In this document: positions 9,191 through 55,709 of the stretch, one piece after another
Layout of the letters: the number at the start of each line of letters is the position of its first letter
Position numbering within the stretch: the stretch's first letter is position 1
Origin: Psammoneis japonica
Lineage: Eukaryota
NCBI GenBank assembly: GCA_008632985.1
Contig: QPGO01000141.1
Span: forward strand, 124,001-188,000
Direction: 5' to 3'
Length of the DNA: 64,000 bases
Notes under the pieces: model-generated
What the model was told of the DNA's origin: nothing
The model's database searches: none
Seen by the model: only the letters and a program-made list of their open reading frames with translations
Program-made: the position numbers and the translations under genes

Positions 9191-9197
9191 GCTCCAT

Positions 9198-14817: not shown

Positions 14818-14825
14818 ACCCGCAG

Positions 14826-19513: not shown

Positions 19514-19744
19514 ATTTGAGCTCCATGATGCTTTTTTAATATCTGTAAGAAGCTGGAGTTATGGTGGTCCGCGGTGCAGATAGGCTACCGCAGCCGTCTC
19601 CACCTTTCGTGGACTCGAATACAGGATGCACGAAGGCGCCAACAACCGCCGGGAGAACAAGTACCGGGCGTGTAACCAGGTGCCTCACTGGCGAGCACAA
19701 CATTTCCATTGCCACTCAACGACACGAACTTTGACTCTTACACA

Positions 19745-21030: not shown

Positions 21031-21032
21031 AC

Positions 21033-24548: not shown

Positions 24549-25047
24549 TGTATCGGATTTAGTTAGAGTGCTGTTGTTAGAGTGCTGTTGGTAACGGCTG
24601 GTGCTGAGCCAACCGTTGTGACGTGTTGTCGGAGGGAAGCGTTGGATTTCCCTCCAATGGCGCTCACTTGTTACGAGTAGTTGTAACAGGCCTAAGAGTA
24701 TCTTTGGATCGTTAGATTGTTGTCATACCAGTGCTGTGAGCAGCTGAGCCATTCGGCAGCTGGATTTGCTCGCTTCATCAGAGCCAGTGTCCGCACTCCG
24801 TGGTTTGGTGATGGAAAACGATGAACAACGTGATTGTGACGGTTGTGTCACGATGGCACGGTTTTGACGACGAATGCCGACTAACCTGAGGGTATTGCAT
24901 GCGCAAAGCAGTGGGAGATGAGGCCACATCACCGCACTCTCAAGGCCTGCGCGCATCGTCAACGCGATTTTGTGAACGTCAAAGTTTTGATGTGCTTCTT
25001 CTGACACAACTTTTGTCTTATGATGCTACAATGAATCAGGTTTCACC

Positions 25048-27441: not shown

Positions 27442-27715
27442 NNNNNNNNNNNNNNNNNNNNNNNNNNNNNNNNNNNNNNNNNNNNNNNNNNNNNNNNNNN
27501 NNNNNNNNNNNNNNNNNNNNNNNNNNNNNNNNNNNNNNNNNNNNNNNNNNNNNNNNNNNNNNNNNNNNNNNNNNNNNNNNNNNNNNNNNNNNNNNNNNNN
27601 NNNNNNNNNNNNNNNNNNNNNNNNNNNNNNNNNNNNNNNNNNNNNNNNNNNNNNNNNNNNNNNNNNNNNNNNNNNNNNNNNNNNNNNNNNNNNNNNNNNN
27701 NNNNNNNNNNNNNNN
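27442..27715. other. Assembly gap (274 N)
   Basis: Run of N; corresponds to ~7138-7418 in copy 1. Confidence 1.
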
Positions 27716-30337
27716 CTGGGAGCACCAGCAGTGCGGCACCACCTCCGGTCATTTGCAACTGTCGCAAACACCACCTTGCCGCCAATGACAACCCACACCA
27801 TGGCAAACACGCCAATTTGATGCAAGATGTTGCAGCACCATTGCAAGGAGTGTCCAGGTGCAACCCTGCCACGCTCCACAGTTGGGTGGCGGCAGCCTCA
27901 AGTCATCATCTGCCAATGGCAGTGATTGTCCATTGCCAAACTGAGGGGGGGGCAACGCCAGCCACATGCAGGTCCCACACCAAATGTCTGCCTGCCCGAC
28001 TGCAGCAATGAGTCCACAATGCCTTGGGACAGCCGAGTCTTTGCAACAGCTGGCGACATCACCTCAGACCAGTTTGCACTGGTTAAATTTGGGGACGACT
28101 CATTCAACCTCATGCAGCAAGGCACTCGTGCACCAACCCATGCAGCGCTCTTGGAGCATGTTGCCAACAATGCCAATGGCTTGCACCCACACCTCCCCAA
28201 TGATGCAGCAAAATGCCGAAGTTGTCCGCACATGTCGCGCCATGCATGTGCCATTTGAGTTCCTCCATTTTCTTCTTGCACAGCTGTTGCAACCCAAGCA
28301 GGCCTGTCAGCGCGTCCACGGTGCCGCCACTGCAGCAAACAAAGTTGCCGCTGTTGGATCACTGCTTGATTTTCTGCGTGTGGCATGCTGTGCCATGGAA
28401 CAAACCAACACACCTCACCAGTGGCACGTGCATGGCCAGTTGTGACTCACCCACCGAGTTCAGTGCCAACTCGATTTTTTAATGTCGCGCAGGCAATTGA
28501 AGAGCTCACTGGAGAACAACGGCAAGGGTGCCTGGATGCCACCGCAAGACAGCAAGCAGCAGTGCACGGAAAGACGCCAATGATTTCTGGGGCATCTTTG
28601 GCATCACCAAGTTGATGCAATGGTGCAGTGTGCTAAACGAGGCAGTGCTGCCGCCACTTTGGGCTGCACCAGCCACCGCAACAAAAACAGGCCGACTGGC
28701 TGTGGTGCAAAACACCATGGATGAACAACGGCAGGCATTGTCCGTGCACTTCAGCCTCCCTGTCACTGTCAGTTTGGTCACAAAGTTGATCCAGCCAGAT
28801 TTTGCTGGACACAACCAAGATGACCCAACCCAAGGTGTTGATCCCTTCCAGTTTGGGCTGGTCACACCCAACGGTGTGGCACAAATTGCATGTTGCAACG
28901 CAGTGCACACTCACATCCAAAGCACCCTTGGCCACTGCCATGCAAGCCGCGCAACAATCGCACAATGGCTTGTGACCAGTGATGTCAGCGTTGATGGGAG
29001 CCAATCATCCAGCAGTGCAGTGGCTCACTTGCCAGCGTCATGACATGGACCGCCATGCCAACAAGCTGGCGGCACTGCACACCTTGCACCGAACCTTGCC
29101 CACGGATTTTCAATGCCGTGCGCAAATTGAAATCCGCCACTGGTTCAGGGCACAAGAGGCTGCACATTGGCCCCTCCCATTTGCACCCCTCAATGTCGTG
29201 TCTGAGGCAGCAAAGGGCATCGCGTGCTGGCACTCGCATCTGCCTGCAAACATGCATGCTGCCCCGCCTGACTTTGGGCAAGGCACCATGGCTGCAAACC
29301 TGGCACACCGCCAGCCCATGCCAGCCAGAGCACCCACCGCTCCAGCAGTTGCAGAAAGCAACAGTGTTGTCCGCAATCCTTCCTGTGATTCTCGTTTCAC
29401 CGCGCTTCGGGAACGCCCCAATGTCAGGTCCTGCGACACAAAGACCCATTGCACCAGAGATGGGATCAACCTTCCCAAGGATGCCAAGGTCGGCTCCATG
29501 ATTTGTTCCTCATTTTGTCCAGTGACGGAGTTTGGGACACAGTCAGCAATGAAGAAGCTGCTGGAATTGTCCTCAATGAGTCTTGTCCTGAAAGAACCAC
29601 AGTGCAACAAGATGAGGACAACCATGATTTAGTTGTCAACACAGACTGCTTCAAGTGGACTGCCAAGAAACTGTGCAATTGTGCCAGGTGAGTTTTGACA
29701 TCACACCTGGTTTGAGCTCATTTGCCGCATGATTGCGATTTGCTGTCTTCTGCTTTGGAGATCACATGCTCACCTTCATGCCCATCTGTTTTCATTGTGT
29801 GGGTCACGCGGATCTGGCAACAATTTTTCTGCCATTTGTGTGTCTTTGCAGAGTTGCGGCAATCCCAACTCAAGCTCTGGGAATCTGCACCGTCGCCTCT
29901 GCTGCACGACAGTCTTTTTCTTCAGAGTGAAATTCAGTTGCATGCTTTAAGTCCGCCTTCCTAAAGAGGCCAAAATTGGCAAGACCGACTTCTCCAGCAC
30001 AAGATTTTTCTCACTGAACAGTGTTGAAAGCACAGTCATGGCTGTCTTGTTGGCTGCATCATTTCACAGCATGCGCAAAGGTTTCTGCCATTGAAACTCA
30101 ACAACGATCTTGTTGTCACTGATGAAATGCAATCTTTGCAGCAATGCCAAAAGAGCTGCAAACAATGTGATTCGATTCATTCTCTCTCCACTCTCCATTC
30201 TCTAGAGCAGAGTGTTGGAGAGCTGCCGCGCGGCAGAACAAGGATGCACAATGAGCACGGGAACCTAAAATTTCAATCGCAGCCACAGCGCGTGGAATGA
30301 CGTTGCACGATGTCACAATCACAACAAACTGTGCACA

Positions 30338-33300
30338 CACAGGAAACAAGAATCCACGGAATTGCACGGAATGTGTGCTTTTTCTCCTTGTTCCATTTGT
30401 TTGTTCCACAAAAAATGAGGCCTTTTTTTGTGTCCGTTTGGATTTTTCTAAGGAACATGCCCTCACATTCCAGATGGAAGTGTCAGCAATCGGAGTGCGA
30501 TGGTCACATTCCGTTCCGATCACCAAGACAAGTGCACTCCATTTTTGTGCGGAACATGAACTTGAAACTGGAACAACCGCTTCATTCCATGCACAGACTG
30601 TGAGGTCAACGAATTTTATTTTCAACAATGTGCCATTTGTTGGCACAGAGCATGTGTTGAGGTGAAAAATTGCAATGAACATTGTCCACATTGGCTGATG
30701 TCACTGCTCCATTGTTCAATGCTCTCTGTTTGTCCCTCTGTGATGATTCAAGCGACCACAGCATCAAGAATGACGGTGAGATGTTTGATGCTGTAATGCT
30801 GTGAGACCGTGCATTGTTGTCATGGCATGCATGTTGTTGTCGTCTTTGATCGTGGAAAATGTTGTGCAGGACACTCACATCTTCATTTTTGTTTTAACTT
30901 GTTGCACAGCAAAGAAGACAGCACAACAATGACGGCCAAAATGTTTGGTTGACATTGGAATGAGAATCCCAAAAGGATCACACATTTTGTTGTTGTTTCA
31001 ATGTTGCAATGTGTCATTGACAAATCAAGGACTTTTAAAACAAACAATTCAAATCATGCATGTGAAACAATTGTGTCAAAAACAAAGAAGAAAACATTTG
31101 ATGACCACGTGCTGATTTGTTGAACAGCACGTGGAAAGACGTCATTGAATTCCACGTGACTTTGACTGCTCTGTAGAAGGTGCAACGATTCATGCCAGAG
31201 GAGAGGATTTGCATCGCAGCCACATTTTCTCGCACTTCTTCTCGTTTGCTCTGTGGGAAGAACAACGGGATGAGTGGGTGGTGTGATTTGTGACAATTGC
31301 AGCACACACGATGGTGAGTTGTGATGTGATTGTGCAGCACTTCAAAGGTCACTTGCACTCATGTTTTCTTCTCTCTTTTTGCTGTTGGGGTTTGTTTCGA
31401 GAGTCCAGAGGGTTCTGGTTCCGAGCGCGGCTGCTCTGCTGCTGAGAGAGTGGCACTGCATCATCGACCACTCTGGCATTTGGCAAAAAAGACATCTGGA
31501 CAGCTGCATCCATCAACGGCCCGCAAGTGCAAGCTTCATTTTGCTTTTTCTGTCACATTGAATGCGTTGCTCACTTTTGACTTTGCCACATGTTGCTCAT
31601 GTTTGGGAAAGGTTGAAGTGCCCCTTGTCATCCATTGGGCACCCAAGACAATCAAAAGAAGGTGTGCATCATTCTGAGATTTGGCTGAGTGGTGTGGCAA
31701 AGCGATCGGTCGTGCAAATGCAGGCAGAGCACCAGCATGGGCGGAGCAGGAGTTCTTGCTGTGCAATGGAAATGCAGCAGCACAATGACCCTGTTTTAGA
31801 ATTTCACTTGATTCCGCAACGTGTTCCGCATCACAAGCTCTGGAGATGACATGCCACACTCCGACCACAACACGGAAAGTGAAGCTGTTGCATTCCGTGT
31901 CATTGGCTGAGCGAAAGGAATCCACAAACGGAATGTGGCAAAAGGAGTGGCAAATGGAATTTAAAACAAATGGCCTCTTTCTAACAAACAAAATGGTGAA
32001 ACGCAACACAGGGGTCGCCGATCTAGTGTTCAGTGCTTGTTGTTCCTGCGATTGCTCATCTGACAGAGACATCGTCGATGAAGAAATGTGACAAATGCAT
32101 TTTGGTGACTTTGGTTCGAATGTTTAGTGTGGTTTGAACTTGCCTCATCAATGACGTCACAGAAGTCATTCTGGGCACACGCGTGTGTCAGAATGCCCAA
32201 CACCCCGTCGACGGCCCAATTAATTTGTGCATTGTGATGTCATCAGCTCATGCAAGAAAATGTCCTGCGTGTCTTTTCCTCTCACGGAATTCATTTGTGG
32301 AGACAACAAACACTGTGTTTACGGTCAAACACAGAAATGATGTCATTTGCATTTGTGAACAACACAATCTCGTGAAAACAATGCAAAAAACAACAAACAC
32401 TAGATGTGCGCGCTGCGCCGTGCCAATTAGATCAGCGAGGCCTGCGCGCAAATTGTGTCTTGGGTGCGGAATGAGTGCACATGTACGTTGGAATGTGACG
32501 CGGATTTTGATGAGGCTTTTTTCGTTTTGCACCGTGTTGTTCACATTGGGGTGTCCCGAAAATCAAATCGGATGGAAATCAGAGGCAAATCAGCCAGATT
32601 TGACCCCAATGGTCATCCGCACGCGTGCCTGCACCAGCCTGTTTTGCGTCTGCTGACAAATCAGGCTGATGGCAGGATCCATGCAAGCACACACCAGAAA
32701 TCCTCTTGCAGAAGCCATGAGAAGTGGCTGGTGTTCAACAAAAAAAGAGAACTTCAACGTGGTTGTGCTGGATTCCCTCTCAGAATTCACAAAAACAACA
32801 AACATCACTCTGTTGCGTCTGTTGTTGTCAACCACAATGTCGAACTTGCCGTGGCGTGGCAAGCCTCTGCCACCTCTCCCAATGCCACAGAAGCTGAAAG
32901 ACGTGAACTTGTGGCCAGTGCAGCTTTGAGACGTCAGGTTCAGGCTGAAGAAATGAACAATTCAGAAGCAAACAACCAAGAAGAGGAAAGCGTGTCACAC
33001 ATGAACGCATCCCGTGTCAGCAATTCGGGTCCCCATGCTGCAACCAGTGGGGATGAATTTGATGGAGAAGGCATGTCATTGTCTGAATCTGTTGACAACA
33101 GTGCTGCTGAGGAAGTTGCTGCAGCTGTCACTCCCACTCAGTCTCAGGAGAAACATCAACAGGAGCCCTCCACGGCTGAAGAAGTTCTGCACACTCCCGA
33201 GCACGCAAGGCAAGACGAGGAGGCCATGCAGCATTTTGATTGAGTCATTCACGAATTTGCTGAAGAAGACCCTGTTGAGTTTCATGAAGCCACACATGAA

Positions 33301-36300
33301 CGGTCATCTGCACAGAATCTTTTGGACACTCAAGTGACTGTCGACGAGGGAGGGAAGACCGGCACGTGCCGCGATCCGAAAACAGGGAAAATTGTGTCTG
33401 CAGACTTGAAGCATCCACACAAAGAAGTCCACAGCCGATTGAAGAGAGAGACAAGAATGCAGGCTGAAGCATGCAGGAAGAGAGAACCACTCAGATGAGC
33501 TGTCAATGACAGAGCAAGAAAAAGTGCGTGCTTTTCTGCATCGTGAATGTTGCAATGTCATTTTGTTCTGGCCTGTTGTCTGACAACATTGTTGCCAAGA
33601 TCTGAGATGGGGGGGATGCCTGTGCAAAGGTCTCTTGAAACGACATGCAACCTCCCAGATGAATGCTTTGGCAGGGTGGACAACACAGCTGAGCATGTCC
33701 ATGCTGAAGGCATGTGTCCAGAACCAAGGTCTTTGTCTGCCACCAGGGCTCAAGGTTTCGTCAACGGCCTGCTGAACCCAACAGAGTCTGAATGGGCTGG
33801 AGATCCAACTGCTGGAAATGTTGTGGATCTACTTGGTGCATCCTCCAGCAGCATTGATGTGTTCTCATTCCCAAGACACCCTCATCCACGACGTCCGCGC
33901 ATGCAAGAAGAGTCGTCTTCCTCCAATTCCACCTCTGCCGACGACCATCTGCTGCTTCAAGATGGCAGGTGCACCAGGAGGGCCAGCACATGGGTGTCTC
34001 GCCCAACTCTTGGCACCTTCCTGGACAACGACAAAGAAGAAGCAGCTCTCCTTTTCATTTTGAAGGCTGCCAAGCAAAAGGGGTTCAACGAAAGCCTTGT
34101 CCATGGAAAGTGCATCAAGTTTCTTTGTGACCCAGTGGATGGGGGCCTCTTTGACAGGAGTCGTCATGGGCCTCTCAGCAACTTCACTCCAATCACTGTG
34201 GACACCCTCAGGAAAAAGTTGAAAGAGGCTGAGACTGTTTGTAGGAGCAGGTGCTGCTCGCAAGGTTCCCACAGCACCGACACCACTGGGGCAGAGGGAG
34301 AGGCCACACCTGAGTTTGGCCGACTGTTTGTGGAGTTTTTCCGGCACCAGGAGCTCCAGTCAAGCTTGTCCTCCTCCCGTCGTCGATCTGCCAACGCTGA
34401 GGCTGCACGAGACAACAGGATCAGGTGTGTGAAGCGATTGTTTGTGCGTGTCATTTTCTGCAGCATCTCTCACAACATTCTGATGCCTCTCACAAGGGTG
34501 GAATGAAGCACAATTGGAGCAATGGCTCCTCTTGGCAAGCCTGGACAGGCGCTCCGGTGGGAGACCACTCGTGGCACCTCTGCCAGTTCCTTGTTTGCGG
34601 CATCACAGGACATTGGCTGTGGCCTCACCCAACAAATCAAGCCTTTGGATCCTGCTCAATCCCAAGGCTCAGCAGTTCAAACATGGAGTCCCCACGTCGT
34701 ACAAGGAGAGGCCGCCCCCCAGCTCCACGCCGCACACACAGCCTGGAGTCATCTCCAGGAGGAACGTCAAGCCACATTCCAACTCGGATGAGCAGTTTTT
34801 GCCGGGGGCACATGTTGCAGCATTCAAGAGCAACTTGCAAGATGTGGTGCAAATGACACACAGCACATCCACAGCGCCTCCTGCAGCAGCTGTTGTCCAT
34901 TTGCCACCATTTTGTCGGACATTTCGAATGTGCAGAACCAACGCGATCAGGCTGAAAATCGTGGAGAGAGCACCGAAAGCTTTGACTTTTACCTGGAAGT
35001 GCTCGAGAATGAGATCAAAGCTTGCAATGCAGCACAGCAGTGTGCCCCACAGCAGATCTATTTTCCTTGCACTCTTCTGAAGAAAACGAAAACCAAGAGA
35101 ACAGCTGCACCGGTTAGACCCGCAGTTGCGCGCCAAGATCCTGGCGCGATTTGCTCAACCAGTTGTTGCTTTACAAGCACTTAGAATTGCAGGACAATCA
35201 ACAGCAACAACATTGTGTGTAGAACGATGGCTTGCTTGTGGTGACACTGTCATTCCCACACCCCCATTGGATCGGAGTCGGCATTCAGACATCCAAACGA
35301 CCTGCAGTTTTGCGCCAAAATCCCAGCAGGATTTGATCAACTGGTCATTGCTTTGGCAAGCACTCAGAACTGTGGGACAATCAACATCAATGACATCATC
35401 TGCAGAACCACAGCTTTCCAATGGTGTTGCTTTCGTTTCCATGCGCCCAGCAGATCAAATTTGGCATTGAGACATCCAAACGCCCCCGTGGTTGCGCCCA
35501 AAATCCCACCGCGATTTGATCGACCAGCCATTGCTTTGCAAGCACTTGGAAGCATGGGGCATGGCCCGCATCCAAAGGTCCCGGGCTGGGTTTCATTCAT
35601 GCCACAGCAGCAATTCAAAAGAAAGAAGGATGAGAACAGCAGCTTCAAAATGCAGTCGCCACTGATGAACAGACGCAAATGGGATGGGTCGTGAAATGCA
35701 CCAACGAGATTGCGGTGGTCGGCAAAGGTGTGCTCCTCCAACTCTCTTGACCCTGCCATGGCAGAGTTGACATTCATTTCAAACCAATCTGGGTCCCGAC
35801 AGCGAGGAACAACAGCTGGCAAATCTTGAGCAAAAATTTCATCAGCATGCGGGGATGGGAGAAAAAGACGATGCGGCGGCAGGGCGTGTGGAGCTAGAAT
35901 TTCCTCGAGATGGCCACTCAGATTGCTCATGTTCATCACTCCCATTGTCATGACGCAAAGAAGCAATCCAAATGCTTCCTGTCATTCCATTGGGAAGAAA
36001 AACTGCTTGCACTTTGAGACCATGAGCTCTGAAATGCATGCTGCAGCGACGGAAAACATGCACAAAGAATTGAGAAAGAGTGAGAAAGATGTTGACAACG
36101 GTTTGACAATCAACACATTTTCAGAAAGGACAACTCCACCCACAGAAAGCTTGTTGCATGTCATCTGTGAAGCCCCAGCACCGTCTTGGTGAATCCCCAG
36201 GGCGAGCCGTTGGAACACCCGTGTAAAAATCCAAATGTTCGGAAGGTCAAAAATGGCAACAATGTGTGCATGAGTTGACCAAAGGTGGCAAATCCGCTGC

Positions 36301-38852
36301 CATCATCCACTTCTTGCAGAGAGGCCCTGCGAACCAGTTTGCTCCAAATCGCAAAACGAAATTTTGTGATGTGAGGCAGCCACATGTTCATCGACCGGCT
36401 GCTTGTCTTGGGGCAGAAAGTTCCATGCAAGTGTTCTGCCATGAATCGCATGATGCAAGTGAAGCGTCGTGGGTTGCCACCAAAAGCATCTCCAGCCATG
36501 GTGGTGCATGTGTGCCCAGATCGAAGGTGACATGAGAAAACAATGACAACCTCCTTGTGCTCAAAAACACAATCTTGACACCTCACAACCGCTGGAACGC
36601 GAAGGTGACGTGTGAGTTTCCGCAGTTTTCGGCGGTTGCAACCTGTGAAACTGCGGCATTCATGTGGAGCAAGACTGTTGATTGTCCTTTTCTGCTCCAA
36701 CAAAAATCTCTCCTGTCTTCTGTGAAAGAAACAACAATCTTCAAAGTTGAGCAGCGACATCATCGTGTGGCACTTGCACCATGCCAGCAAAGTGAAAAAA
36801 GTCTTGAACGCTGCTGCTTCTCGGAAGCACTGAGCTGCATTCCTTTGCTTCTTTTCAATTGGAACAACAAGCATGAACAAGAACAAAAGCAATGCATGAC
36901 AGTGTGACATCATCATCATTGCAACAGCACAGTGGCCGGCCATTTCTCGCGCATCTGATGCCGTCAAGCCATCACCATGGTGCAACCAGTTGGTGCGGCG
37001 CACTGCTTGCCTTCTGCCCATGCCATCCTCTCAGCATCATCTTGGCCGTCATCAGCATCACCAGAAGAAACATCCTCATGACTGCGTTGCCTGAGATTGA
37101 CGGCATCATCATCTTGGCTCATCATCTTGCTCGGCTGCGGCCTGCGGGTTCAAACAAAGCAGCACAACAAATTGTCCATGGAGCAGCAACACAGAAAAGA
37201 GAGTTTGACACAGTCAATGTAGTCACTCGAATGAGGGATTGTGCTTCGTGCGATTTGAGAGGGCGCGCCACAGTTCTTGGCCCGTTCATTTTCTACGTGG
37301 CCTGGCACAACCCAAATCTGTGTAGATTCAGTGCGTTTTGCCCTGCAGAACAGTTTTTGGGAGTGTTTTCTGGCTCGCAATGCAAAATGACACGCAAAAT
37401 GACACGGACAATGGCGTTTTGCCGATTTCAAAAATGCGGTTGTTTCTGAGGTGCTTTGCAGTGTGCTCTCAATGGAATGTCACACGTCACAGCACAAGGT
37501 GTGTGATGAGCTCGAGAGCACACAGGTTCACATGGGTGGCTGATGGTGACATTTTGAGCTGAAGATTGATGTTGACACCTCCGATTTTGTTGCATCAAAA
37601 CGCAACTTGTGCATCACCATTCATTCTGTGCATTTCGTTGAGCACTCACACGTTCACATTCTTTGAACTTGCACACATGTTGTCTTTCCTCATTGTTGTT
37701 TTGTTCTGCAGGGTCTCCCTTGCCATGAGCCATCCCTGAGAGAGAAATGCTTCCTTTGAATGTCACTTCTACCTTGCAACGGCCACGGCAGTCTGACGAC
37801 AAGTCCAAGTCACAGACACAGCATCCAGATGGCTTCACAATGAATGCAGAAGCTTGGGTCTGTGGTGTCTGCAGATGTTCAAGCTCTTGACAGCTCAGAT
37901 TTGTCGCAGAGCAATTTTGCCGCGCATTCGACGTGCTTCCAAAAGGCGATGCGGAGTTTTGTTCAACAGAGAAACGCACCATGGCAATTGTGATGGTTTG
38001 CATTGAGTCTCACAGCTGCAAGGCAGTTTGTGACACAGAAACATGTGACTTGTTTGCCTCATTTGCCAAGCCTGTGCAACACATTTAGAGGTGAAAGTCG
38101 GGGCAAATTGTGCACAGTGCCAAGTCTCCAAAAACAGCACAAGAGTGCAAGCCCAAAAGAAAAATTGGCTTTGCAACTTGCCACTAGAGTGCAGAGCTTG
38201 TTTTTCTGGGGCATCATGTCTCTGTTGTTTTTGTGGAGTGAACATTCACTGGAGTTGTCACCGCCAACGTGCGAGTTCACCTTGACAACATGTTGCACTG
38301 TGTTCTGAGATTTTGGAATGAAAAAACAACTTGCGCTCACATTGTTCTGTCACAACAGAAATGTGCGAGCTGTCCCTGGCCCTTTTGGAGAAATCGGGCA
38401 AGTGAAAGAGGAGCTGCAGAAAGATGCAGACGACGCCATTTTGATGGATTCTCGTCAGGTGGGGTGTGGCGAGGAGTCGTGATGGAGTGCCGCTTCGTGT
38501 TTTTGTGCTGCGTCCATGTGGGAATGTGCGTGCTTGGCTCTCGTGCAGTTTCCACGTAAAAAGTGCACCAGGCGATCTCTGGACCGCCCTCTTAAATGGA
38601 AATTTGACAGAAAAGGAATTTGGAATGTTTCACATTTTCGATTTCTCTGATCCCCTGCCGCGCGCGTCGTCAGCAACGCGCTTTTCGGGACACCCAGAAC
38701 TCAGCGGCGTGTGGGAGGCCGCGCGGTGCGCTGAAACGCGTCCGATTTGCGTCCGGAACCGCATTTTCGGGACACCCTGTTCCGTTTTGAGGCCTTTCGC
38801 GACGGAGTCGCGCACACATTCCGTGCGATTCCGTGGATTCTCGTTTCCTGTG
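30338..38852. mobile_element. TIR transposon, copy 2
   Basis: Same TIR pair and internal content. Confidence 0.75.
35396..37021 (-). pseudogene. Harbinger transposase relic, copy 2
   Basis: Near-identical to copy 1 with additional indels. Confidence 0.8.
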
Positions 38853-38938
38853 TAAAACAAACAGCAATGAACGAGATGCGAGACAGTCGGCAGTCGAACA
38901 CACCACGAGTCGAAGCAGGAGTGCCGCTGTCATGGCGC

Positions 38939-39802
38939 ATGAACAAGGAAATTGCACTCATGGAAGATCACCGCCTTGACGAAGACGCCGATGGCTTCGA
39001 AGAGCATTTCAACGAGGCTGATGACGATGCATTTCCTCACACACAACAGCACTGCGCCTCGTTGACCCCAGATTTGCGAGGAGAGGGACATTTCGACACC
39101 CGCCTTGTCAGCTTTCACAAAGGCCCAAACACACCTGAAGAGCGGCACTTTTGTTCCCATCCCAAGTCACCATCCTACCTGAATGGTGATCCTCGAAGGA
39201 CTCCAGCAGATCATCCGCTCAGAGCCATCGCTTGGGTCCTTGACGCTGCTCCACTTAATTCTGTGGTGCGCCTTTTCTGCTGCTCTCTGACAGATCCGAC
39301 AGCGATTGATTTGCTCGTTCATGCCGGATCGTCGCATGATGTCAGAGTTATCCTTCATCCAAATGACAAGAGTAAAAGAGCATTGGAAGAATTTGTTGAT
39401 CAACATGGGAAAAGTGCTTTTCTCGAAAACATGGAAATTCGTCTAGCAAACCTAACAGGCTCCCCGTGCGAATCGAGCAAGGTCCAAATGCATGAGAAAT
39501 CCCTTGTTACGGATACATGCACCGTCATTGGAAGTTGCAACCTGTCGAGCTTTGCCCGCGTAGGAAATTGGGAGTCGATTTGCGTGGTGGATACACCGCC
39601 CAAATGTCAAGCCAACTTTGACGGCATCTGGGACAACATTTCCAATCGACAAGTTGAGAAGCTTTATGCCAATTTACAGAGCACAGTAGTTGGTCCTCGA
39701 CGACGGGCCCGTGCTGCTGCACGAGAAGCAGAGGATGCGCGGTGACAACAGGCTGCCAGAAACCGCAAGGCCCAGGAACAAAGCTTAACTACCACTCATT
39801 GA
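38939..39802 (+). pseudogene. PLD/Nuc-like gene, copy 2, hypermutated
   Basis: Many TA>CA/TG changes (QQYY>QQHC, GSYN>GSCN) and a CGA>TGA stop ending at 39745. Confidence 0.85.
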
Positions 39803-40033
39803 ATTTGAGCTCCATGATGCTTTTTTAATATCTGTAAGAAGCTGGAGTTATGGTGGTCCGCGGTGCAGATAGGCTACCGCAGCCGTCTCCACCTTTCGTG
39901 GACTCGAACACAGGATGCACGAAGGCGCCAACAACCGCCGGGAGAACAAGTACCGGGCGTGTAACCAGGTGCCTCACTGGCGAGCACAACATTTCCATTG
40001 CCACTCAACGACACGAACTTTGACTCTTACACA

Positions 40034-41323
40034 AGACGCCAAGATACTTTAGCAGCAACGCAATGTGGAGCTGCAGCTGTTGCCTTTTTAAAGGTGAGGT
40101 GTACAGGATACAGAGCACTGTGTGTTGGTGTGTTTGTTCTCAACCACCGCACTCTCACGCAATAAGAGTGCTTGTTGTTTCAATGTGTTAACGGAGTTCT
40201 TCCCGCCGCAACAGCCTTTATTGCACTTTGCTCGAAAATGGCATCGGTCATGAGCAAGTCGAAGCTCTTTTATTCGACCTGTATACCCGTTTTCTTCTTT
40301 TTCCTACATCTCTTTGATGCATGGATTTATCCCAATTCCAACCGGATCCACCCATCCTTGGAAACGGGGCTGTCGTGGTTGCCCCAGCGAAATGTGTTGG
40401 CCGAAATTCGCAGCCATTAGACATCTTGTTTGTTTTATATTGTGACGAAAATTTACTCGTCCGTCTCGGTCGGACTCTTGTTTTGGCAATTTGCGAATGA
40501 CGTTGTGTCCGTCGAACAAGCCATGAGCGTTTTTGTCTACTCTTTGCTCAAATGAGTAGACTGGTTCCCGTCGTGGCGGGACAATATGTTGTGTGGTATA
40601 CCAGTCAATCCGAATCCTTTGCGGTGAGTTTGCACCGACTCGCGGCAGCCGTGAGTTTTGCGGGAGTCATGATTTGTGCCTCTCATCATGCGAGTCGAAC
40701 GTATATAAAACAGCAAGCACAAGAAGAGCAAGCTTCGTTATCCAATAATACCAAAGAGACGACGCCAGTATCTACACCAAAGAAACCTAAAGCATGGGGG
40801 GAATCGGCAAAGTTCCTGGCATCCTCGCAGTATCTGAGACTGATTGCCGCATTGGTGCGGGTGTACGGACTGTCGATTCATTAAAAAGAAAAAGTATCCC
40901 GATCCGCTCGATTATCAACGATTCCTATCAGCGTGCATTGTCATTTTCTTTGGCGTGCACGTGATTCGAATCTTGGGATGGAGGGTGGGTGACATGACGA
41001 AATCATGGCTGTACTTGCATCACCATTCTTTGCTCGCATCTTATTGGATCTCGACGGCAGCCAGGATCTTTACTAAGCAAGACGTCCAAATACGCACTCT
41101 TTGATCCCACGACACCAATGGCGTACAGTGCACTCGACGAGGAATCCAAGGTCAAGGGAAAGGCTGCGATTGATGTATTGGGATTGCGTATTGGCAAGAG
41201 CGGCGGCTCGTTAGTTCAACAAGGGTTGGTAGTGTTGTTTGGAAACATTATTGATGCGGCGCCCGTGGTTGTCGTGATTATAAAACCGTCTTGTTGGGGT
41301 GGATGGGCGCGGCTAAAGACTAC
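40034..41323 (+). pseudogene. NTT/TLC transporter pseudogene, copy 2
   Basis: As copy 1; the 5' part carries extra TpA losses. Confidence 0.83.
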
Positions 41324-41795
41324 AGTGTAGAACAAAAGCGTTGTTTTCTTTTTAGAACTGATACCGTATCTACAAACAAAGTGTAGAACAAAAGCGTTGG
41401 TTGTTTTAGAACGGATACCGTATCTACAAACAAATTGTCACTCGGACCTACAGCGCTAAAAAATCAGGAATCTTGTTATAGCCGCAAGTAGTGTTTGTAG
41501 TGGCAGGTGCCAACGTAATTCTGGACGAGGAGCTGCGTCTCTCCACATTTGATGGACTAATGTAGCAAAAGCTTGTTGAAATTGCTCTTCATCTTGATGA
41601 CATCGTTGTCATCGTTGTTTGGGACTGACGCACCGTTGACCAATGCTCCTTGTCTGCCAACAACTGCACGTAGATGCCAGCAGGCGCTGAAGGAGCACTT
41701 GCTCCATGCAAAGATCTCTTGGTCCTTTTTCTTGTTGCATGGCGGAGCACCAAATGCGGTTGATGGTGCTTCATTGGAACACTTCTCATCTCAAA

Positions 41796-43603
41796 ATGGC
41801 TCGGAGCAGCAGATACAATTATGTATTGTTGTACGTGGCGTGTTGTGTGTATCGACTCGGCAACGCCTGCCATGGTTGCTTTATACGCAATTTGATCCAG
41901 ATGAGTATTGGCAAAGCTTGGAGCCAGCATACTGTCGAGTGTTTTCTTCTCAAAACAACAATTGCGCACTCACGTGGGAATGGCTTGGAGATGAACCGAT
42001 ACGATCCTACGTATCGATACTACCAACGTTTCTGTTTTACAAGACTGTATCTGCGTTGCAACACTTTCTTAAAGATGCTACAATTTCGTGGCTTGTTTCG
42101 AGAGGACCGTTGTTTTTGCATGCGATACTCGTTACAGCACCAACCGACTTGTGTATCTACTATTTGTCATCGTGTGAAGGGTGGTGTTTGTTTTGTTCCC
42201 TGACGAGTTGGTTTCATGGATACGCTCTGGCACGAACCTATAGCAATTCTCTAGAAACTTTGTTGCTTTTGATGGGTCTGGTGCTAATTCAAAAGAAACA
42301 ACAAACAAATTTGGCTTTCCTTTTGGGTGGAATCAGTGTATCGATTCGATTTACAGCCTTGGCGGCTTGGATTCCACTCGGAATGTACTTGGCATTTTTT
42401 CAACAAGAAAACAAACGAACGTCGATACGAAATTTGGTAACGTTTTTGTTTTATCCCTGTGCCATTTTTGGATTGCTCGGGGTGTTTGCCGCCATGGTGG
42501 TGGATTATCATTTTTACGGGAAACAATGGACCTTTACACTGTTGAACAATATTGTCTTTAATGTTGTGGAGAACAATGGAGCCTTGTATGGGACTCACTC
42601 GTGGCATTGGTACTTGACGGGAGGAATACCGGCCATTACGGGTACCATGTTTCTCTTGTTGGTTTGGGATCTTACGGATCTCTTGACGGTCATACCACAA
42701 CGAAAAGACAATAAGAGACGCACACAACGAAAACAGCTGTGGACCATTATTTCATGCTATACCCTGCTGCATTCTTGTAATGCGCACAAGGAGTTTCGCT
42801 TTCTCTTGCCCATAGTACCGCTCTGTTGTATCTTGGCGGGCTATCGAATGAAGCTCTTGTACTTGATGTGTACGTCCGTGCTTGTGGATTCTTCGAGCAG
42901 ATTTTTTCTCAAGGAAAAAGTGGCAAGCTACAAGGTGGTGTTGATAGTCATGATTACCGTCCCAATCCAGTTGAACCTTCTACCCATGATGTACCTTTCA
43001 CAAATTCATCAACGATCACCCATTTCGATCAATTTATACATTGTCGAGTCCTTGTTGAAAAAAGACTCAACCTTGTTGTCGTCTTCCCATGTCGATATTC
43101 ATTATCTCATGGGGTGTCATTCAACTCCGGTGTATAGCCATTTGCACGTACCGAAACGACCCGTGACAATATGGACCTTGGATTGTTCACCCAAGTGTCG
43201 TCGAACAAAGAATTGCGAGAGTGATGCATTCTTGGCGGACCCCAAAAGCTTTGTATACGATCATTATCGTGCCTTGCAAAAAGAGGATGTTTGCAAAGGC
43301 AACGACGAGACCAAAACGTGTCTAGCCGACACTGCTTCTACATTAGCACATCAGCTCGAGACACCTGATTTCATGGCTGTCTTTGTGGCCGACGTTTTAA
43401 AGATTGGCAAGGATGCATTCGACACTCTTGGCCTGCAGGAAGAGGCCCGTTTTATCCACAGTGTCATGGGAATGCGAATACGGATTGGACACGGCTATTT
43501 GCATATTAAACACACGGATCGAAGCATTTACAGCAAGCGTTCAGCAGGACGAGTGGACGTATATTATGATGAAATGGTGCTCTTTGTCAAGAAGAAAGAC
43601 TGA
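41796..43603 (+). pseudogene. PIGB: PIG-B paralog (type B); +4 frameshift after the native ATG, but open from an upstream ATG at 41597
   Basis: ORF 41573..43603 carries all PIG-B motifs; the native N-terminus (MARSSRYNYVLLY) is in another frame. Confidence 0.75.
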
Positions 43604-44847: not shown

Positions 44848-45348
44848 TGTATCGGATTTAGTTAGAGTGCTGTTGTTAGAGTGCTGTTGGTAACGGCTGG
44901 TGCTGAGCCAACCGTTGTGACGTGTTGTCGGAGGGAAGCGTTGGATTTCCCTCCAATGGCGCTCACTTGTTACGAGTAGTTGTAACAGGCCTAAGAGTAT
45001 CTTTGGATCGTTAGATTGTTGTCATACCAGTGCTGTGAGCAGCTGAGCCATTCGGCAGCTGGATTTGCTCGCTTCATCAGAGCCAGTGTCCGCACTCCGT
45101 GGTTTGGTGATGGAAAACGATGAACAACGTGATTGTGACGGTTGTGTCACGATGGCACGGTTTTGACGACGAATGCCGACTAACCTGAGGGTATTGCATG
45201 CGCAAAGCAGTGGGAGATGAGGCCACATCACCGCACTCTCAAGGCCTGCGCGCATCGTCAACGCGATTTTGTGAACGTCAAAGTTTTGATGTGCTTCTTC
45301 TGACACAACTACTTTGTCTTATGATGCTACAATGAATCAGGTTTCACC

Positions 45349-46770
45349 ATGGCGGCAGCCCCACCGAACCCGATGGAAACGGCCCTCACTTGGATCGGTT
45401 TCCAGCTGCCTGCTCAGCGCAACGCGATCATGACTGATGTCGCTGCGTTTGACGATGTCGTCGACATGAAGGAATCGGACATCGACACGCTCGCGCAGTC
45501 TTGTTCGAGGAGGACTGCTGCTGAGGGGTGTTTCCACTTTGGATTGGCTCGCACCCGTCGTCTCAAGTCCCTTGTTCATTGGGTGCATGACTTCCAACGC
45601 GTCAGTGAAAATCCTGCCATCGACGGTTTGGATCAGGCGCGTTTTCTCGATGCGCCATCTGCTGCGTTGTCGAGGGCTGACATTCACAGCCAGATGAGGG
45701 ATCAATCCGAGTCCATTGCTCGTGAGGCATCCCCTGGACTCTTGGAGAGCGAAAAGGTCTGGGCAAAATGGAGCGCCGCTTTCAAGAACATGCTCAGCAC
45801 GATGCTGGGAGTCGACGGCGTTCCATTGATTTGTGTCACATGCGAGAATGAGGAGCCCGAGCCTGAAGGGCATGAGACTTTCATGCAGAAGTCGGTTGCA
45901 TGCGCTCCACTCGAGGGTCCAGCTTTCGAAGCTGATTCTCGTGCCGTCAGCCAACTGATCGTTTCGTTCACGAAAGGCACCCCAAGCGAGCAGTGGATCA
46001 AAGAGCACCGCAACAGCCAGAACGGTCGTCTCAACTGCGAATCTTTGGAGAACCACTGTCAGGGCGAGGGCAATGCTGCCCGTCGCATCTCAGAAGCTGA
46101 GCATTTGGAAAACACTCTGCACTGCAGGAGTGAATGCTCCATGACGTTCGAAACGTTCGTGAACAAGCTTCAGGAGATGTTCAACATTTTCAAAGAGAAT
46201 GACGAACCCAAGACGGAGGCTCAGAAGCTGCGATTGCCATTCGGCAAGGTGCAACACCAGCAGTTGCAGAACACAGCAGAGACCCTGAAGGCGCAGAATG
46301 AGTTCAGAGGAGGGATCAGTTTTGCTGCAGCGTGCAACCATCTTGCCGCTAAAGTTGCCACTCTCCCGGAAACAGTTGCGCACCGTCGTGCGATTTCCTC
46401 TGTTGCGTCCGGCGTCAGCAAGGAAGGTGATTCCATTTACAAAGAAGATGGGTCCATTGACACCGGATTTCATAAAAATTGGCATCAATTGAGCAAGGAA
46501 GACAAGAAGAAGGTCATGGACGAGCGTGTGCGTTTGGGACTCAAGAAGAAGCCGGGCAACCCGAAGCGCCGCGCTGCATCCGTCAGATCGCTTAAAAAGA
46601 AGAATCGGAAGCTGACGTCCCAGCTTGAGCAAGCGAACCGCACTGTTTCTTCCTTGGAGACCACTGCCAGCACCGATTCCGGAAAGGTTGGTGCAGGAAC
46701 TGGCGGTCAAGGCGGCAACAATGCCGGAGACGCATTTGGGGGACGCCAGGAGCGTCAGCAACGCAGCTGA
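45349..46770 (+). mobile_element. Copia gag relic, copy 3 (continuous 473 aa frame with many apparent Tyr>Cys changes)
   Basis: Full-length open frame with only one Tyr; Cys at expected Tyr sites (VPLICV, NHCQGEG, LHCRSE). Confidence 0.75.
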
Positions 46771-49700
46771 CTCCCAAGCTGGACCCTCTTCTGCAGCCTC
46801 ATCCAGTTTGCATTGTGGCCACTTCATTGGGGCGGGGGCCAGCCGCATCGTTCGAAAGAAACGTTGGTTCATTGTCAGTGCCAGCAGAATCATCTGAAGG
46901 AGGAGGCATTGAATCGTTGGACCGTGTCGTTTCGGGTCCTGACAAGAGAGAAACATTGTCATCAGCGTTCCTTTCTCTTTGCACCTCTGGTCCTCCTGGA
47001 TGGATGGCAAAGGCGCCAGCAGCATCAAAACATCTGCACCTGCATTGTAGGATGTAAAGTTTGGAGCAGTTGTGGCGCCCATGTCTTTGTCGGCATGATT
47101 GGATTTAACGAGCAGTTGTGCAAGCTGTTTTTCTTCTTTTTGTGCTTTGTCTTTTTGTTCTTCAACAGCCAAGTTTGCTTCTGCTTGTTGCTGCTCTTGA
47201 CGGTGGCGATGGGCAGTTTTTCTTTTCTTCTTTTTCTTGTGAGAAGCAGCGGCGGTTGTTTCTCCTGCAGGTGTTGTTTCTTCAAATTCTTCCAGTTGTT
47301 GCTTCTCCTTCTCGTCATCCTTCAAGTTGCCGCTCCTGCTGGCACTGCCATGAACACCATGCCTGTCGCACATGTCGTTGTTGTGGTTGTTGTTGGAATG
47401 ATTCATCACGGGGGCAAACAACTCTGCAGCGAGAAAGATGCATGGACAAACCGTCAACAAACAGCCACAAGCCACAAGCAACACGAGTGAGAGGTTTGTG
47501 ATGCTCTGTTGCACAACTGGGCAGGTTCACAACTGCGAGTTTGGGACACCCACCTCGTGCAGTTCGACAAGGCAAATGACCCGTTTCTGACCGTTGGGTC
47601 AGCCCAGCCATTTGAATTTAAAATTGAACGTTCTTGTGCGAGCAAGGCAAGCAATCAAAGGTTTTTTGGCTCACAATTTCTCTCTCTTTTGCTCATTCTT
47701 CTAAAGACCAACAACGAGCAAAGAGCCGCCAGACAGTTTTTAACGCTGTCAACGTGATGCAGGATGCCTCCGCCGCAGCTCCCATTTGTTTGCAGGAAGA
47801 ACCCACGCTTGTCTGTCATGGAGGCTTGGCAGCTGCAGAGTGCAGGTCAGCAGCAGCAAATTGCCGGCCAGGGGGGCCAAGGGGCCAACAATCAAGTTCT
47901 GGGCCAAGGCCTGGCACTGGGAGCCGCAGCTGTGGCCCACAATGTGCAAGTGCTGCTGCCACCACAAGTCCCAGTGCCTCCAGCAGGTCCTCAAGCAGCT
48001 GGAGCCATGCAACTGCCCCTGCCGCTGGGAGCACCAGCAGTGCCGGCACCACCTCCGGTCATTTGCAACTGTCGCAAACACCACCTTGCCGCCAATGACA
48101 ACCCACACCATGGCAAACACGCCAATTTGATGCAAGATGTTGCAGCACCATTGCAAGGAGTGTCCAGGTGCAACCCTGCCACGCTCCACAGTTGGGTGGC
48201 CGCAGCCTCAAGTCATCATCTGCCAATGGCAGTGATTGTCCATTGCCAAACTGAGGGGGGGGCAACGCCAGCCACATGCAGGTCCCACACCAAATGTCTG
48301 CCTGCCCGACTGCAGCAATGAGTCCACAATGCCTTGGGACAGCCGAGTCTTTGCAACAGCTGGCGACATCACCTCAGACCAGTTTGCACTGGTTAAATTT
48401 GGGGACGACTCATTCAACCTCATGCAGCAAGGCACTCGTGCACCAACCCATGCAGCGCTCTTGGAGCATGTTGCCGACAATGCCAATGGCTTGCACCCAC
48501 ACCTCCCCAATGATGCAGCAAAATGCCGAAGTTGTCCGCACATGTCGCGCCATGCATGTGCCATTTGAGTTCCTCCATTTTCTTCTTGCACAGCTGTTGC
48601 AACCCAAGCAGGCCTGTCAGCGCGTCCACGGTGCCGCCACTGCAGCAAACAAAGTTGCCGCTGTTGGATCACTGCTTGATTTTCTGCGTGTGGCATGCTG
48701 TGCCATGGAACAAACCAACACACCTCACCAGTGGCACGTGCATGGCCAGTTGTGACTCACCCACCGAGTTCAGTGCCAACTCGATTTTTTAATGTCGCGC
48801 AGGCAATTGAAGAGCTCACTGGAGAACAACGGCAAGGGTGCCTGGATGCCACCGCAAGACAGCAAGCAGCAGTGCACGGAAAGACGCCAATGATTTCTGG
48901 GGCATCTTTGGCATCACCAAGTTGATGCAATGGTGCAGTGTGCTAAACGAGGCAGTGCTGCCGCCACTTTGGGCTGCACCAGCCACCGCAACAAAAACAG
49001 GCCGACTGGCTGTGGTGCAAAACACCATGGATGAACAACGGCAGGCATTGTCCGTGCACTTCAGCCTCCCTGTCACTGTCAGTTTGGTCACAAAGTTGAT
49101 CCAGCCAGATTTTGCTGGACACAACCAAGATGACCCAACCCAAGGTGTTGATCCCTTCCAGTTTGGGCTGGTCACACCCAACGGTGTGGCACAAATTGCA
49201 TGTTGCAATGCAGTGCACACTCACATCCAAAGCACCCTTGGCCACTGCCATGCAAGCCGCGCAACAATCGCACAATGGCTTGTGACCAGTGATGTCAGCG
49301 TTGATGGGAGCCAATCATCCAGCAGTGCAGTGGCTCACTTGCCAGCGTCATGACATGGACCGCCATGCCAACAAGCTGGCGGCACTGCACACCTTGCACC
49401 GAACCTTGCCCACAGATTTTCAATGCCGTGCGCAAATTGAAATCCGCCACTGGTTCAGGGCACAAGAGGCTGCACATTGGCCCCTCCCATTTGCACCCCT
49501 CAATGTCGTGTCTGAGGCAGCAAAGGGCATCGCGTGCTGGCACTCGCATCTGCCTGCAAACATGCATGCTGCCCCGCCTGACTTTGGGCAAGGCACCATG
49601 GCTGCAAACCTGGCACACCGCCAGCCCATGCCAGCCAGAGCACCCACCGCTCCAGCAGTTGCAGAAAGCAACAGTGTTGTCCGCAATCCTTCCTGTGATT

Positions 49701-55700: not shown

Positions 55701-55709
55701 TCAATGACA

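Follow-up and report, generated by a model that had tools for sequence, protein, structure and literature searches.

The window analysed here, a 64,000-nucleotide stretch of Psammoneis japonica contig QPGO01000141.1 (positions 124,001 to 188,000), is a tandem array with a unit of about 20.3 kb that holds three copies of a diatom-like gene pair. Over less than 2 kb, the second copy departs from the other two almost exclusively at the dinucleotide TpA. The question raised by this locus is which process exchanged these letters, in which direction, and whether the difference belongs to the genome or to its assembly. The three copies were compared over aligned spans (copy 1, 18291-21400; copy 2, 38591-41700; copy 3, from 59217 on), and the three-way alignment of the whole unit comprised 19,034 columns. 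In a tandem array, two-to-one agreement among copies does not fix the direction of change by itself.

The copy-2 patch and its sequence motif

Inside the equivalent of 38770-40600, copies 1 and 3 are separated by three differences only, while copy 2 carries 37 private substitutions, of which 34 are A>G or T>C and three are C>T at CpG. The corresponding features, identified in the three-way alignment and without strand unless indicated, are as follows.

38779..40525: hypermutated patch private to copy 2, with 34 A>G changes, each in 5'-TA context
18479..20236: copy-1 counterpart of the patch, all 34 sites unmutated, with a copy-1 1-bp deletion at 19173
60215 and 60823: changes private to copy 3
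39336: CpG transition private to copy 2, changing Arg126 of the PLD-like coding sequence to His
39743..39745, plus strand: copy-2-private CpG transition CGA>TGA, which puts an early stop into the PLD-like coding sequence (codon 262 of 280)
40594: CpG transition private to copy 2, inside the NTT relic
38859..38860: site of a copy-2-private 12-bp deletion, between short direct repeats

A preliminary description had counted by eye about 34 TpA substitutions on both strands, accompanied only by three CpG transitions and a 12-bp deletion. The alignment gave exactly 34, divided into 16 TA>TG (plus strand) and 18 TA>CA (minus strand) with a non-significant runs test, and it recovered the same short list of other differences in 38770-40600; the 12 bp are kept in copy 1 (18560-18571) and copy 3 (59486-59497). 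All 34 substitutions sit at TpA of copies 1 and 3, no transversion was found among them, and at one site (40185) all three copies differ, with A in copy 1, G in copy 2 and C in copy 3. The enrichment that the same description had proposed to check was confirmed, since 34/153 TA-context adenines of the patch, counted on both strands, were changed versus 0/758 other adenines (Fisher p=1.6e-28), including 0/275 in ApA context. Additionally, among sites that are TA in both copies 1 and 3, 33/75 were changed inside the patch and 0/221 outside it (p=3e-23). Of the 50 substitutions private to copy 2 in the 19,034 columns, 33 are A>G at TpA, and all of these fall within the 1,758-bp patch. Across the whole unit, A>G at TpA accounts for 8/157 private changes in copy 1 and 5/239 in copy 3, without an excess like that of copy 2. 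The three CpG transitions reached a binomial p=0.023, and no 1-bp indel was found within the patch in the three-way alignment.

The rule extends beyond the dinucleotide. The base following the mutated adenine is a pyrimidine in 29/34 cases, versus 67/120 spared TA-context adenines (p=0.002), and it is G in only one. By four-base class, 18/28 RTAY, 10/25 YTAY, 6/15 RTAR and 0/9 YTAR sites were mutated. Double hits, with both strands changed, were absent from all 28 RTAY sites (P=0.016 under independent strand hits), which is expected if the first hit destroys the target. No hairpin-loop preference was detected (18/34 mutated versus 57/120 spared adenines). The changes are densest beside the neighbouring repeat and fade outward, as had been claimed: by distance bin from the zone edge, 12/14, 10/15, 2/13, 9/22, 1/12 and finally 0/38 eligible TA sites were mutated (Mann-Whitney p=1e-10).

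Direction of change and the adjoining repeat zone

The patch covers a PLD-like gene and the first part of an NTT relic, and is followed by a further gene.

38960..39802, plus strand: PLD-like (PLDc_2) coding sequence of copy 2 (Pfam PF13091; homologue alignment; codon table)
59598..60440, plus strand: PLD-like coding sequence of copy 3, intact, 280 aa, used as proxy for the ancestral state
40166..41384, plus strand: fragmented NTT (TLC ATP/ADP transporter) relic of copy 2, mapped from copy 3 (60804-62022), with Pfam PF03219 found on pieces of the latter
41561..43600, plus strand: GPI mannosyltransferase 3 (PIG-B, Alg9-like) open reading frame (Pfam PF03901), with normal TpA content and best named homologues that are all from diatoms, which provided the taxonomic placement

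Relative to copy 3, the copy-2 PLD-like coding sequence has 14 non-synonymous differences, stop included, and six synonymous ones; GSYN has become GSCN in the HKD region, and the Pfam score is 35.3 bits versus 36.7 for copy 3. The direction proposed earlier, from TA to CA or TG, agrees with two comparisons. In the alignment, 20 homologous proteins side with copies 1 and 3 at every residue-changing site, with Tyr, Ile or Leu in place of the His, Cys, Thr or Pro of copy 2, and Y110, Y111, Y187 and Y272 are nearly invariant among them. Moreover, the DNA outgroup L001 carries the copy-1/3 base at 16/17 TA-type sites, so that the outgroups show TA, and not CA or TG, as ancestral. These sequences show copy 2 to be the derived state, and because the changes are private to it, they post-date the duplication, as had been suggested.

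To the left, the patch abuts the right edge of a zone of about 14 kb that recurs in every copy and has lost nearly all of its TpA.

4700..18470: TpA-free zone of copy 1, 56 TA left, 33 of them YTAR
25000..38770: TpA-free zone of copy 2, 54 TA left, 31 of them YTAR, with a run of N at 27442-27715
45300..59400: TpA-free zone of copy 3, 64 TA left, 35 of them YTAR
45325..46767, plus strand: copia/Ty1-Gag-like open reading frame of 481 aa in the copy-3 zone (homologues, AF2, Foldseek, composition)

The observed/expected ratios of the zone are 0.07 for TA and 1.6 for CA/TG in each copy, 0.63 for CG in copy 3, and 1.23 for AA. Among the surviving TA sites of the copy-3 zone, 35/64 (55%) are YTAR, versus 33/253 in the genic part (p=2e-11), and this share is alike in all copies (31-35 of 54-64). 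A single four-base rule in which YTAR is spared therefore fits both the patch (0/9) and the survivors of the zone (55%). The Gag-like frame has 1740 homologues and an AF2 model with pLDDT 86.8, whose Foldseek matches, the Ty1 Gag CA-CTD and the Copia capsid, have probability 1.0 but weak E values of 0.4-1.3. Tyr makes up 0.4% of the residues of this frame, while the median over 114 homologues is 2.44%; conserved positions show the replacements Y>C, I>T and L>P. A Pfam search of 71 open reading frames of the zone returned no match except one weak PP2C hit. In public run X1, contig depth is 1400-5600 at the zone end versus about 60-130 over the genes; the Gag-like fold and this depth together mark the zone as repeat DNA, possibly of foreign origin, where the earlier description had placed a transposon end. 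As regards a possible targeting of selfish DNA, the zone has a Gag-like frame, with the weak E values given above, and a high-copy end, and the patch itself lies in host genes.

Candidate processes

The reading that we favour, and consider somewhat likelier to be right than wrong, is a TpA-directed process acting on DNA, which would have saturated a zone in each unit and recently spilled into the copy-2 genes. Adenine would be converted to guanine only after T, on either strand, with TAY preferred and YTAR spared. In the long term, such a process would have erased nearly every TpA from the repeat-derived, Gag-bearing zone of each unit; more recently, in copy 2, it would have run about 1.75 kb past the right edge, reaching the PLD-like gene and the first stretch of the NTT relic, and weakening the farther it went. 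Chemically, the best candidate is adenine deamination in DNA, with the resulting hypoxanthine read as G; the enzyme responsible could be an ADAT2/TadA-like deaminase, or one of another type, brought to silenced repeat chromatin. If it acted in several rounds, the mixed strands would be accounted for. The spread may have been guided by chromatin in a heterochromatin-like manner, as had been proposed; the support for this consists of the three CpG transitions of the patch and the CpG depletion of the zone. The copy-2 haplotype would then be a true allele of the assembled isolate. Against this reading stands the fact that only one of three copies with a similar neighbouring zone was affected.

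Other mutational routes can be weighed on the same data. The difference between copies is the exact dinucleotide pair of classical RIP (CA/TG versus TA), and in an array the two-to-one agreement would permit C>T at CpA in a common ancestor of copies 1 and 3, both derived from one mutated copy, with copy 2 keeping the ancestral CA/TG. However, the residues kept by the homologues, the bases of L001, the public-run contigs, which read TA, and the adjoining zone, which is TpA-poor rather than TpA-rich, all oppose it; since copy 2 is derived, this is not classical RIP, and we regard that history as next to impossible and refuted by the outgroups. Repair synthesis along some 1.8 kb by an error-prone enzyme, polymerase eta for instance, would account for A:T>G:C transitions on both strands that fade over 1-2 kb. 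The signature of this polymerase is WA>WG, known from the A:T phase of somatic hypermutation, and its tracts show hits at both TA and AA along with some transversions, whereas here ApA was spared, transversions were absent and the zone retains AA while losing TA, which excludes W=A as a target. This route would also leave the 14-kb saturation in all copies unexplained, and is very improbable. Hyperediting of RNA by an ADAR- or ADAT-like enzyme, followed by reverse transcription and recombination into copy 2, or ectopic conversion from a mutated paralogue, is quite improbable as well. A U/T at -1 is typical of adenosine deaminases (the available text of a recent preprint says so of ADAR; Mettrop et al., bioRxiv 10.64898/2026.01.13.699255), the neighbouring zone has a retroelement Gag-like frame, and the tract length suits gene conversion; on the other hand, one cDNA cannot yield both strands mixed in one haplotype, G is disfavoured at +1, opposite to the ADAR preference, and the hairpin-loop preference is missing. 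As for conversion, no donor haplotype was found among the public-run contigs, and the patch is colinear with its flanks.

An artefact of the sequencing platform or of base modification is a less likely but possible explanation, and a serious caveat, because the copy-2 haplotype is absent from public contigs and because copies 1 and 2 carry private 1-bp deletions. According to it, TAY adenines beside the zone, either modified or systematically deviant in signal, would have been read as G by the basecaller or polisher in copy 2 of a long-read assembly, the 34 differences being miscalls, yet the evolutionary loss of TpA in the zone would stay real. The preliminary description had held that absence of the haplotype from reads would refute it, and this came true in part: one public sample alone (runs X1 and X2) contains the locus, and its contigs lack the haplotype. 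These contigs are unbranched across the copy-2-private sites, with all depth showing the copy-1/3 letter at every one listed, and the 12 bp missing from copy 2 are present in all X1 contig depth; the copy-3-private change at 60823 is also missing from them. The sampled words were present at shares of 0.54 and 0.48 in the two runs, which is the expectation with no copy-2 words, given that copies 1 and 3 share 0.607 of the 31-mers. Since the main haplotype of the sample matches the window outside the copy-2-private sites, it may represent the same strain, and the absence fits either recency or artefact. Additionally, the consensus of copies 1 and 2 is of questionable quality: they have 15 and 16 private 1-bp deletions, many outside homopolymers, versus one in copy 3; these look like long-read consensus residue, a pattern that arises where short reads could polish the cleanest repeat copy alone. 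In nanopore data, A/G substitutions are 3-5 times as frequent as transversions, and the error profile shifts at methylated bases (PMC8486125). The dominance of A/G and C/T substitutions and the dependence on modification are thus alike; however, the accessible part of that paper describes no TA-specific, locally graded mode, and here the same TpA rule is also fixed in the sequence of all three copies. A strict rule (34/34), with a YTAR immunity matching the fixed composition of the zone, is hard to obtain from generic error, and such calls are absent both from copies 1 and 3 and from the 221 TA sites of copy 2 outside the patch. The lack of 1-bp indels in the patch and of RTAY sites miscalled on both strands likewise argues against miscalling, as do the three CpG transitions and the clean 12-bp deletion, flanked by direct repeats, that accompany the patch.

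Relation to known systems and implications

In the chlorarachniophyte (rhizarian) Bigelowiella natans, de novo hypermutation restricted to TpA (TA>TG and TA>CA) was described in integrated viral DNA, together with genome-wide clusters depleted in TpA and enriched in CpA+TpG, with an ADAT2-like enzyme as candidate (Mettrop et al., bioRxiv 10.64898/2026.01.13.699255). As far as the sequence allows comparison with the available text of that preprint, the copy-2 signature matches this phenomenon, which would previously have been described only in that unrelated alga. In both cases, A>G and T>C make up nearly all changes, each of them at a TpA; they are local and sporadic, in some lines there and in one copy here; the long-term footprint is a loss of TpA with gain of CpA+TpG, enriched for transposon- and virus-like sequence there and lying in a repeat zone with a Gag-like frame here; and an adenine deaminase is the favoured cause. 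The host here is instead a diatom-like stramenopile, the target is a copia-Gag-bearing repeat zone in a tandem array rather than an NCLDV or virophage insert, and the depletion is deeper (TA o/e 0.07, versus Rho 0.45 for the B. natans NCLDV region). Unlike in B. natans, ordinary host genes are reached, and a four-base rule sparing YTAR applies, whereas a word search of the available preprint text gave neither trinucleotide context nor flanks. Conversely, the B. natans events are de novo, with a rate obtained by experiment, while those described here are known from assembled sequence alone. A comparison with RIP is also drawn in that preprint.

Like RIP, the process at this locus is associated with repeats, specific for a dinucleotide, made of transitions on both strands and able to saturate a repeat, and it bleeds about 1 kb into neighbouring genes, inactivating them. 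RIP, in Neurospora and other ascomycetes, changes C>T at CpA and creates TpA, depends on cytosine-methyltransferase homologues and a premeiotic stage, and leaks into flanking single-copy genes. Duplicated DNA and flank leakage are found here too (20.3-kb tandem units; a graded 1.75-kb spill), but chemistry and direction are opposite: A>G at TpA destroys TpA, as outgroup polarity and the TpA-poor zone indicate. Regarding adenosine deaminases, ADAT2/3-TadA enzymes act on tRNA A34 after U33, and ADAR, which hyperedits RNA, prefers 5' U/A and 3' G neighbours. They share with this locus the A>I change read as G and a strong 5' U/T preference (5' T in 34/34). In contrast, the +1 G that ADAR favours is rare here, where pyrimidines prevail, and both groups have RNA as natural substrate; no stem-loop preference appears here. 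DNA editing was described for amphioxus ADAT2 (PMC10354150, in its accessible part).

If the copy-2 haplotype is real, A>G hypermutation restricted to TpA would now be known from two lineages, this one being the first among stramenopiles. To the one preprint on the phenomenon, the locus would contribute a rule beyond the dinucleotide, with YTAR immune and RTAY most exposed, and would indicate that near-complete TpA loss over 14 kb is attainable and that leakage can disable host genes, as in the PLD-like gene with its residue changes and stop. Taken together, this would place an adenine-based counterpart of fungal RIP among the wider themes of eukaryotic genome defence. Zones with TA o/e <0.1 and YTAR-enriched survivors offer a signature for genome scans, and TpA-free DNA yields long spurious open reading frames that can mislead annotation. 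The finding would, in addition, suggest that a natural, motif-specific editor of DNA adenines exists. With about even chances, diatoms, and perhaps the wider SAR group, may possess a still active RIP-like defence of opposite chemistry, in which an adenine DNA editor with a TAY/non-YTAR motif would strip TpA, and hence Tyr codons and TAA/TAG stops, from retroelement-derived repeats, and would spread in cis from silenced repeats to inactivate genes copy by copy, possibly in nucleosome-sized steps.

Tandem array and TpA-free zone

The window carries a tandem array with a unit length of ~20.3 kb, in which each unit comprises a GPI-mannosyltransferase-3 (Alg9-like) ORF, an FG-GAP fragment, a long stretch without Pfam match, a PLD-like gene (PF13091) and a fragmented relic of an NTT (TLC ATP/ADP transporter). 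For the mannosyltransferase, the best named homologues are found in diatoms only, at 34-39% identity, with no chlorarachniophyte among them, and a Bacillariaceae protein occurs among the PLD-like matches; the source is accordingly taken to be a diatom or a near relative of diatoms. The array and the features discussed below are the following:

~1189-21484, unit 1
21485-41777, unit 2
41778-62418, unit 3
62419, beginning of a fourth unit
27442-27715, run of 274 N in unit 2
~45300-59400, TpA-free zone of copy 3
45325-46767, plus strand, Gag-like ORF at the left end of the zone of copy 3
14874-15260, 35174-35561 and 55489-55875, internal tandem repeats of the zone
55986-58081, further internal tandem repeat of the zone, copy 3
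38779-40525, substituted patch of copy 2
38960-39802, PLD-like coding sequence of copy 2
after 38859, 12-bp deletion private to copy 2
39336, CpG transition private to copy 2
39743, CpG transition private to copy 2, making a TGA stop
40594, CpG transition private to copy 2

The N run stands for a segment of 281 bp in copies 1 and 3 (7138-7418 and 47744-48024), so the size of the gap is nearly exact.

In every copy, a zone of ~14 kb situated directly upstream of the patch region is depleted of TA (observed/expected 0.07), with CA and TG at 1.6 and CG at 0.63, versus 0.58, ~1.25 and 1.0, respectively, in the genic part. Since the stop codons TAA and TAG need TpA, the zone is crowded on both strands with long ORFs that overlap one another (71 of at least 90 aa in 14.6 kb), almost none of which has a family match; a Pfam search of ORFs from the zone and unit, first 26 and then 51, left the zone without a match save a weak PP2C. 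Such ORFs represent a trap for gene callers. Additionally, the final 360 bp of the zone is high-copy, reaching a depth of 1400-5600 in a public run versus ~60-130 over the genes. As to internal structure, copies 1 and 2 contain a single ~849-bp repeat unit each, compared with ~2.5 units in copy 3, another repeat measures ~182 bp, and the junction between zone and genes is unlike between copies (16618-18290 in the copy 1/2 form, 58081-59216 in copy 3).

The 481-aa ORF at the left end of the zone has 1,740 detected homologues, which form a family of proteins of ~480 aa (members including P0158-P0307) without a Pfam model. Its predicted structure is all-helical (pLDDT 86.8), and Foldseek matched it to the Ty1 Gag CA-CTD and the Copia capsid at probability 1.0 with weak E-values, while a search of PDB sequences with the family profile returned nothing at E<0.4. 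Tyrosine makes up 0.4% of this ORF, whereas the median of 114 homologues is 2.44%, with a single homologue depleted to a similar extent, and Y>C, I>T and L>P replacements fall in conserved columns of the ORF. The family member P0191 is Tyr-poor and Cys-rich to the same degree as the ORF of the window and may be another hypermutated copy elsewhere; a metagenome scan with P0191 confirmed no relative.

Substitutions private to copy 2 and their polarity

A preliminary description had counted about 34 TpA substitutions in copy 2, split between TA>TG and TA>CA. In the three-way alignment, exactly 34 private substitutions were found at 38779-40525, every one where copies 1 and 3 have TpA, with 16 changed to TpG and 18 to CpA, that is, A>G after T on either strand, which bears out the action on both strands that had been proposed. 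The enrichment is extreme, as 34/153 adenines in TA context were hit versus 0/758 other adenines (p=1.6e-28). The remaining differences were the same set that had been listed, namely the three CpG transitions and the 12-bp deletion. Of 50 substitutions private to copy 2 over the whole unit, 33 represent A>G at TpA, and these are all confined to a 1,758-bp patch; where copies 1 and 3 both have TA, 33/75 sites were hit in the patch and 0/221 outside. The PLD-like coding sequence of copy 2 has 14 non-synonymous codon changes, including R262>stop, and 6 synonymous ones.

The direction of change matters, because the differences between copies involve the same dinucleotide pair as fungal RIP. When aligned with 20 homologues, copies 1 and 3 were found to have the conserved residue wherever a substitution alters the protein, four nearly invariant tyrosines and GSYN in the HKD region among them; copy 2 has His, Cys, Thr, Pro or Val at these sites. 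Likewise, the metagenome contig L001, whose encoded protein is 82% identical (nucleotide identity 78%), carries the copy-1/3 base at 16/17 TA-type sites of the aligned coding sequence, so the outgroups do not present CA/TG as ancestral. Judged from these alignments, the state of copy 2 is the derived one and the process is A:T>G:C, and classical RIP polarity is ruled out by both the protein and the DNA outgroups. The observation and its polarity are therefore confirmed.

The hits are also densest next to the zone and fade with distance, as had been described. The fraction of eligible (non-YTAR) TA sites hit was 12/14 at 0-400 bp from the zone edge, 10/15 at 400-800 bp, 2/13 at 800-1200 bp, 9/22 at 1200-1600 bp, 1/12 at 1600-2000 bp and 0/38 at 2000-2960 bp (Mann-Whitney p=1e-10). 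Hit spacing peaks at ~205 bp, and tests against a null that retains site class and distance decay (point-wise p=0.007-0.04, global p=0.06 over periods of 100-300 bp) give a hint of a spacing similar to a nucleosome repeat. Of the seven CpG transitions private to copy 2, three are inside the patch (p=0.023), an excess compatible with methylation spreading across it.

Target context in the patch and in the zone

The base 3′ of the hit adenine was a pyrimidine in 29/34 cases, versus 67/120 unhit adenines in TA context (p=0.002). By four-base class, hits occurred at 18/28 RTAY, 10/25 YTAY, 6/15 RTAR and 0/9 YTAR sites. Double hits, one on each strand, were absent from RTAY sites (P=0.016 under independence), which is expected if the target is lost at the first hit, and no clear strand-coordinated blocks were detected (15 runs versus 17.9 expected, z=-1.0). 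Hairpin-loop targeting, the expectation for TadA-like enzymes, found no support, since predicted loops hold 18/34 hit and 57/120 unhit adenines (p=0.70), and the probability of being unpaired was 0.74 for hit versus 0.78 for unhit adenines (p=0.29).

The same rule predicts what remains of TA in the zone, where YTAR, the class never hit in the patch, makes up 35/64 of the surviving TA in copy 3, versus 33/253 in the genic part (p=2e-11); the zones of copies 1 and 2 have similar fractions, 33/56 and 31/54, respectively. This match is taken here as the strongest evidence that patch and zone were made by one real process. Inside the zone, one dinucleotide reads CA in copy 1 (8266-8267) and TG in copies 2 (28563-28564) and 3 (48873-48874); in the simplest history, a TA that predates the duplication would have been hit later, on a different strand in each of two lineages. 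At ten more sites of the zone, one or two copies have TA and the others CA or TG.

Public data, miscalling and precedent

The locus is present in only one public sample (runs X1 and X2), and no RNA run holding it was found among public runs. The fraction of sampled words found was 0.54 and 0.48 in the two runs, while a fraction of 0.607 of the 31-mers is shared with copies 1 and 3. The refuting condition named in the preliminary description, reads devoid of the copy-2 haplotype, has partly come true: at every listed copy-2-private site, all X1/X2 contig depth carries the copy-1/3 letter, the 12 bp deleted in copy 2 is present, and the contigs pass unbranched over these sites. A change private to copy 3 at 60823 is also absent from them. 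Elsewhere, the main haplotype of the sample equals the window, and both may come from the same strain. Additionally, X1/X2 contain a second, more divergent haplotype over 39378-39944 and 40271-40943, matching none of the three copies (over the 175 bp of 39625-39799 it shows 11 differences and 6 gap positions), as well as a form skipping 671 bp (40271>40943). One X2 contig skips 90 bp with GT..AG ends in the NTT relic (40622-40713), which could reflect splicing of a transcript, or else a paralogue that is processed or intact, the run type of X2 being guessed to be DNA.

The missing haplotype keeps alive another explanation, a platform- or modification-driven miscall in which the A of TAY is called G in copy 2. 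This reading is also favoured by private 1-bp deletions, which number 15 in copy 1 (for instance 19173, 20654, 21202 and 21215), 16 in copy 2 (for instance 24246, 24366, 26014 and 35055) and 1 in copy 3, about half of them outside homopolymers. In copy 2 they are about as numerous as the 17 private substitutions outside TpA, a ratio that resembles long-read consensus residue more than natural change. These deletions disrupt the PLD-like, Gag-like and mannosyltransferase ORFs of copies 1 and 2; either copy 3 is alone in being functional, or the other two copies were left unpolished. Several findings speak against a miscall: the strict motif of the patch is common to the fixed sequence of the zone, such calls are absent from the remaining 221 TA sites of copy 2, RTAY sites are never hit twice, and a deletion and CpG changes accompany the patch. 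We therefore lean, with some reserve, towards a real, recent and copy-specific spill of TpA-directed A-to-G hypermutation from a saturated, putatively retroelement-derived zone into the PLD-like gene and the NTT relic, for which we infer an enzyme and chromatin-guided spreading.

A precedent is provided by a 2026 preprint on Bigelowiella natans, the text of which describes mutation-accumulation lines where two integrated viral regions mutate ~1000-fold faster than the remaining genome, with nearly all changes being A>G and T>C, every one on TpA, and in some lines only (10.64898/2026.01.13.699255). The same text reports 124 genomic clusters depleted of TpA and enriched in CpA and TpG, and proposes an ADAT2-like protein as candidate DNA adenine deaminase (10.64898/2026.01.13.699255). 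As far as that text describes it, the mutational signature is the same as in the window; a word search of the main text returned no mention of trinucleotide context, flanks or diatoms (10.64898/2026.01.13.699255). No report of TpA-specific hypermutation in diatoms was found in the literature. If true, the spill in P. japonica would represent a new, diatom-like case of a kind known so far from one chlorarachniophyte preprint.
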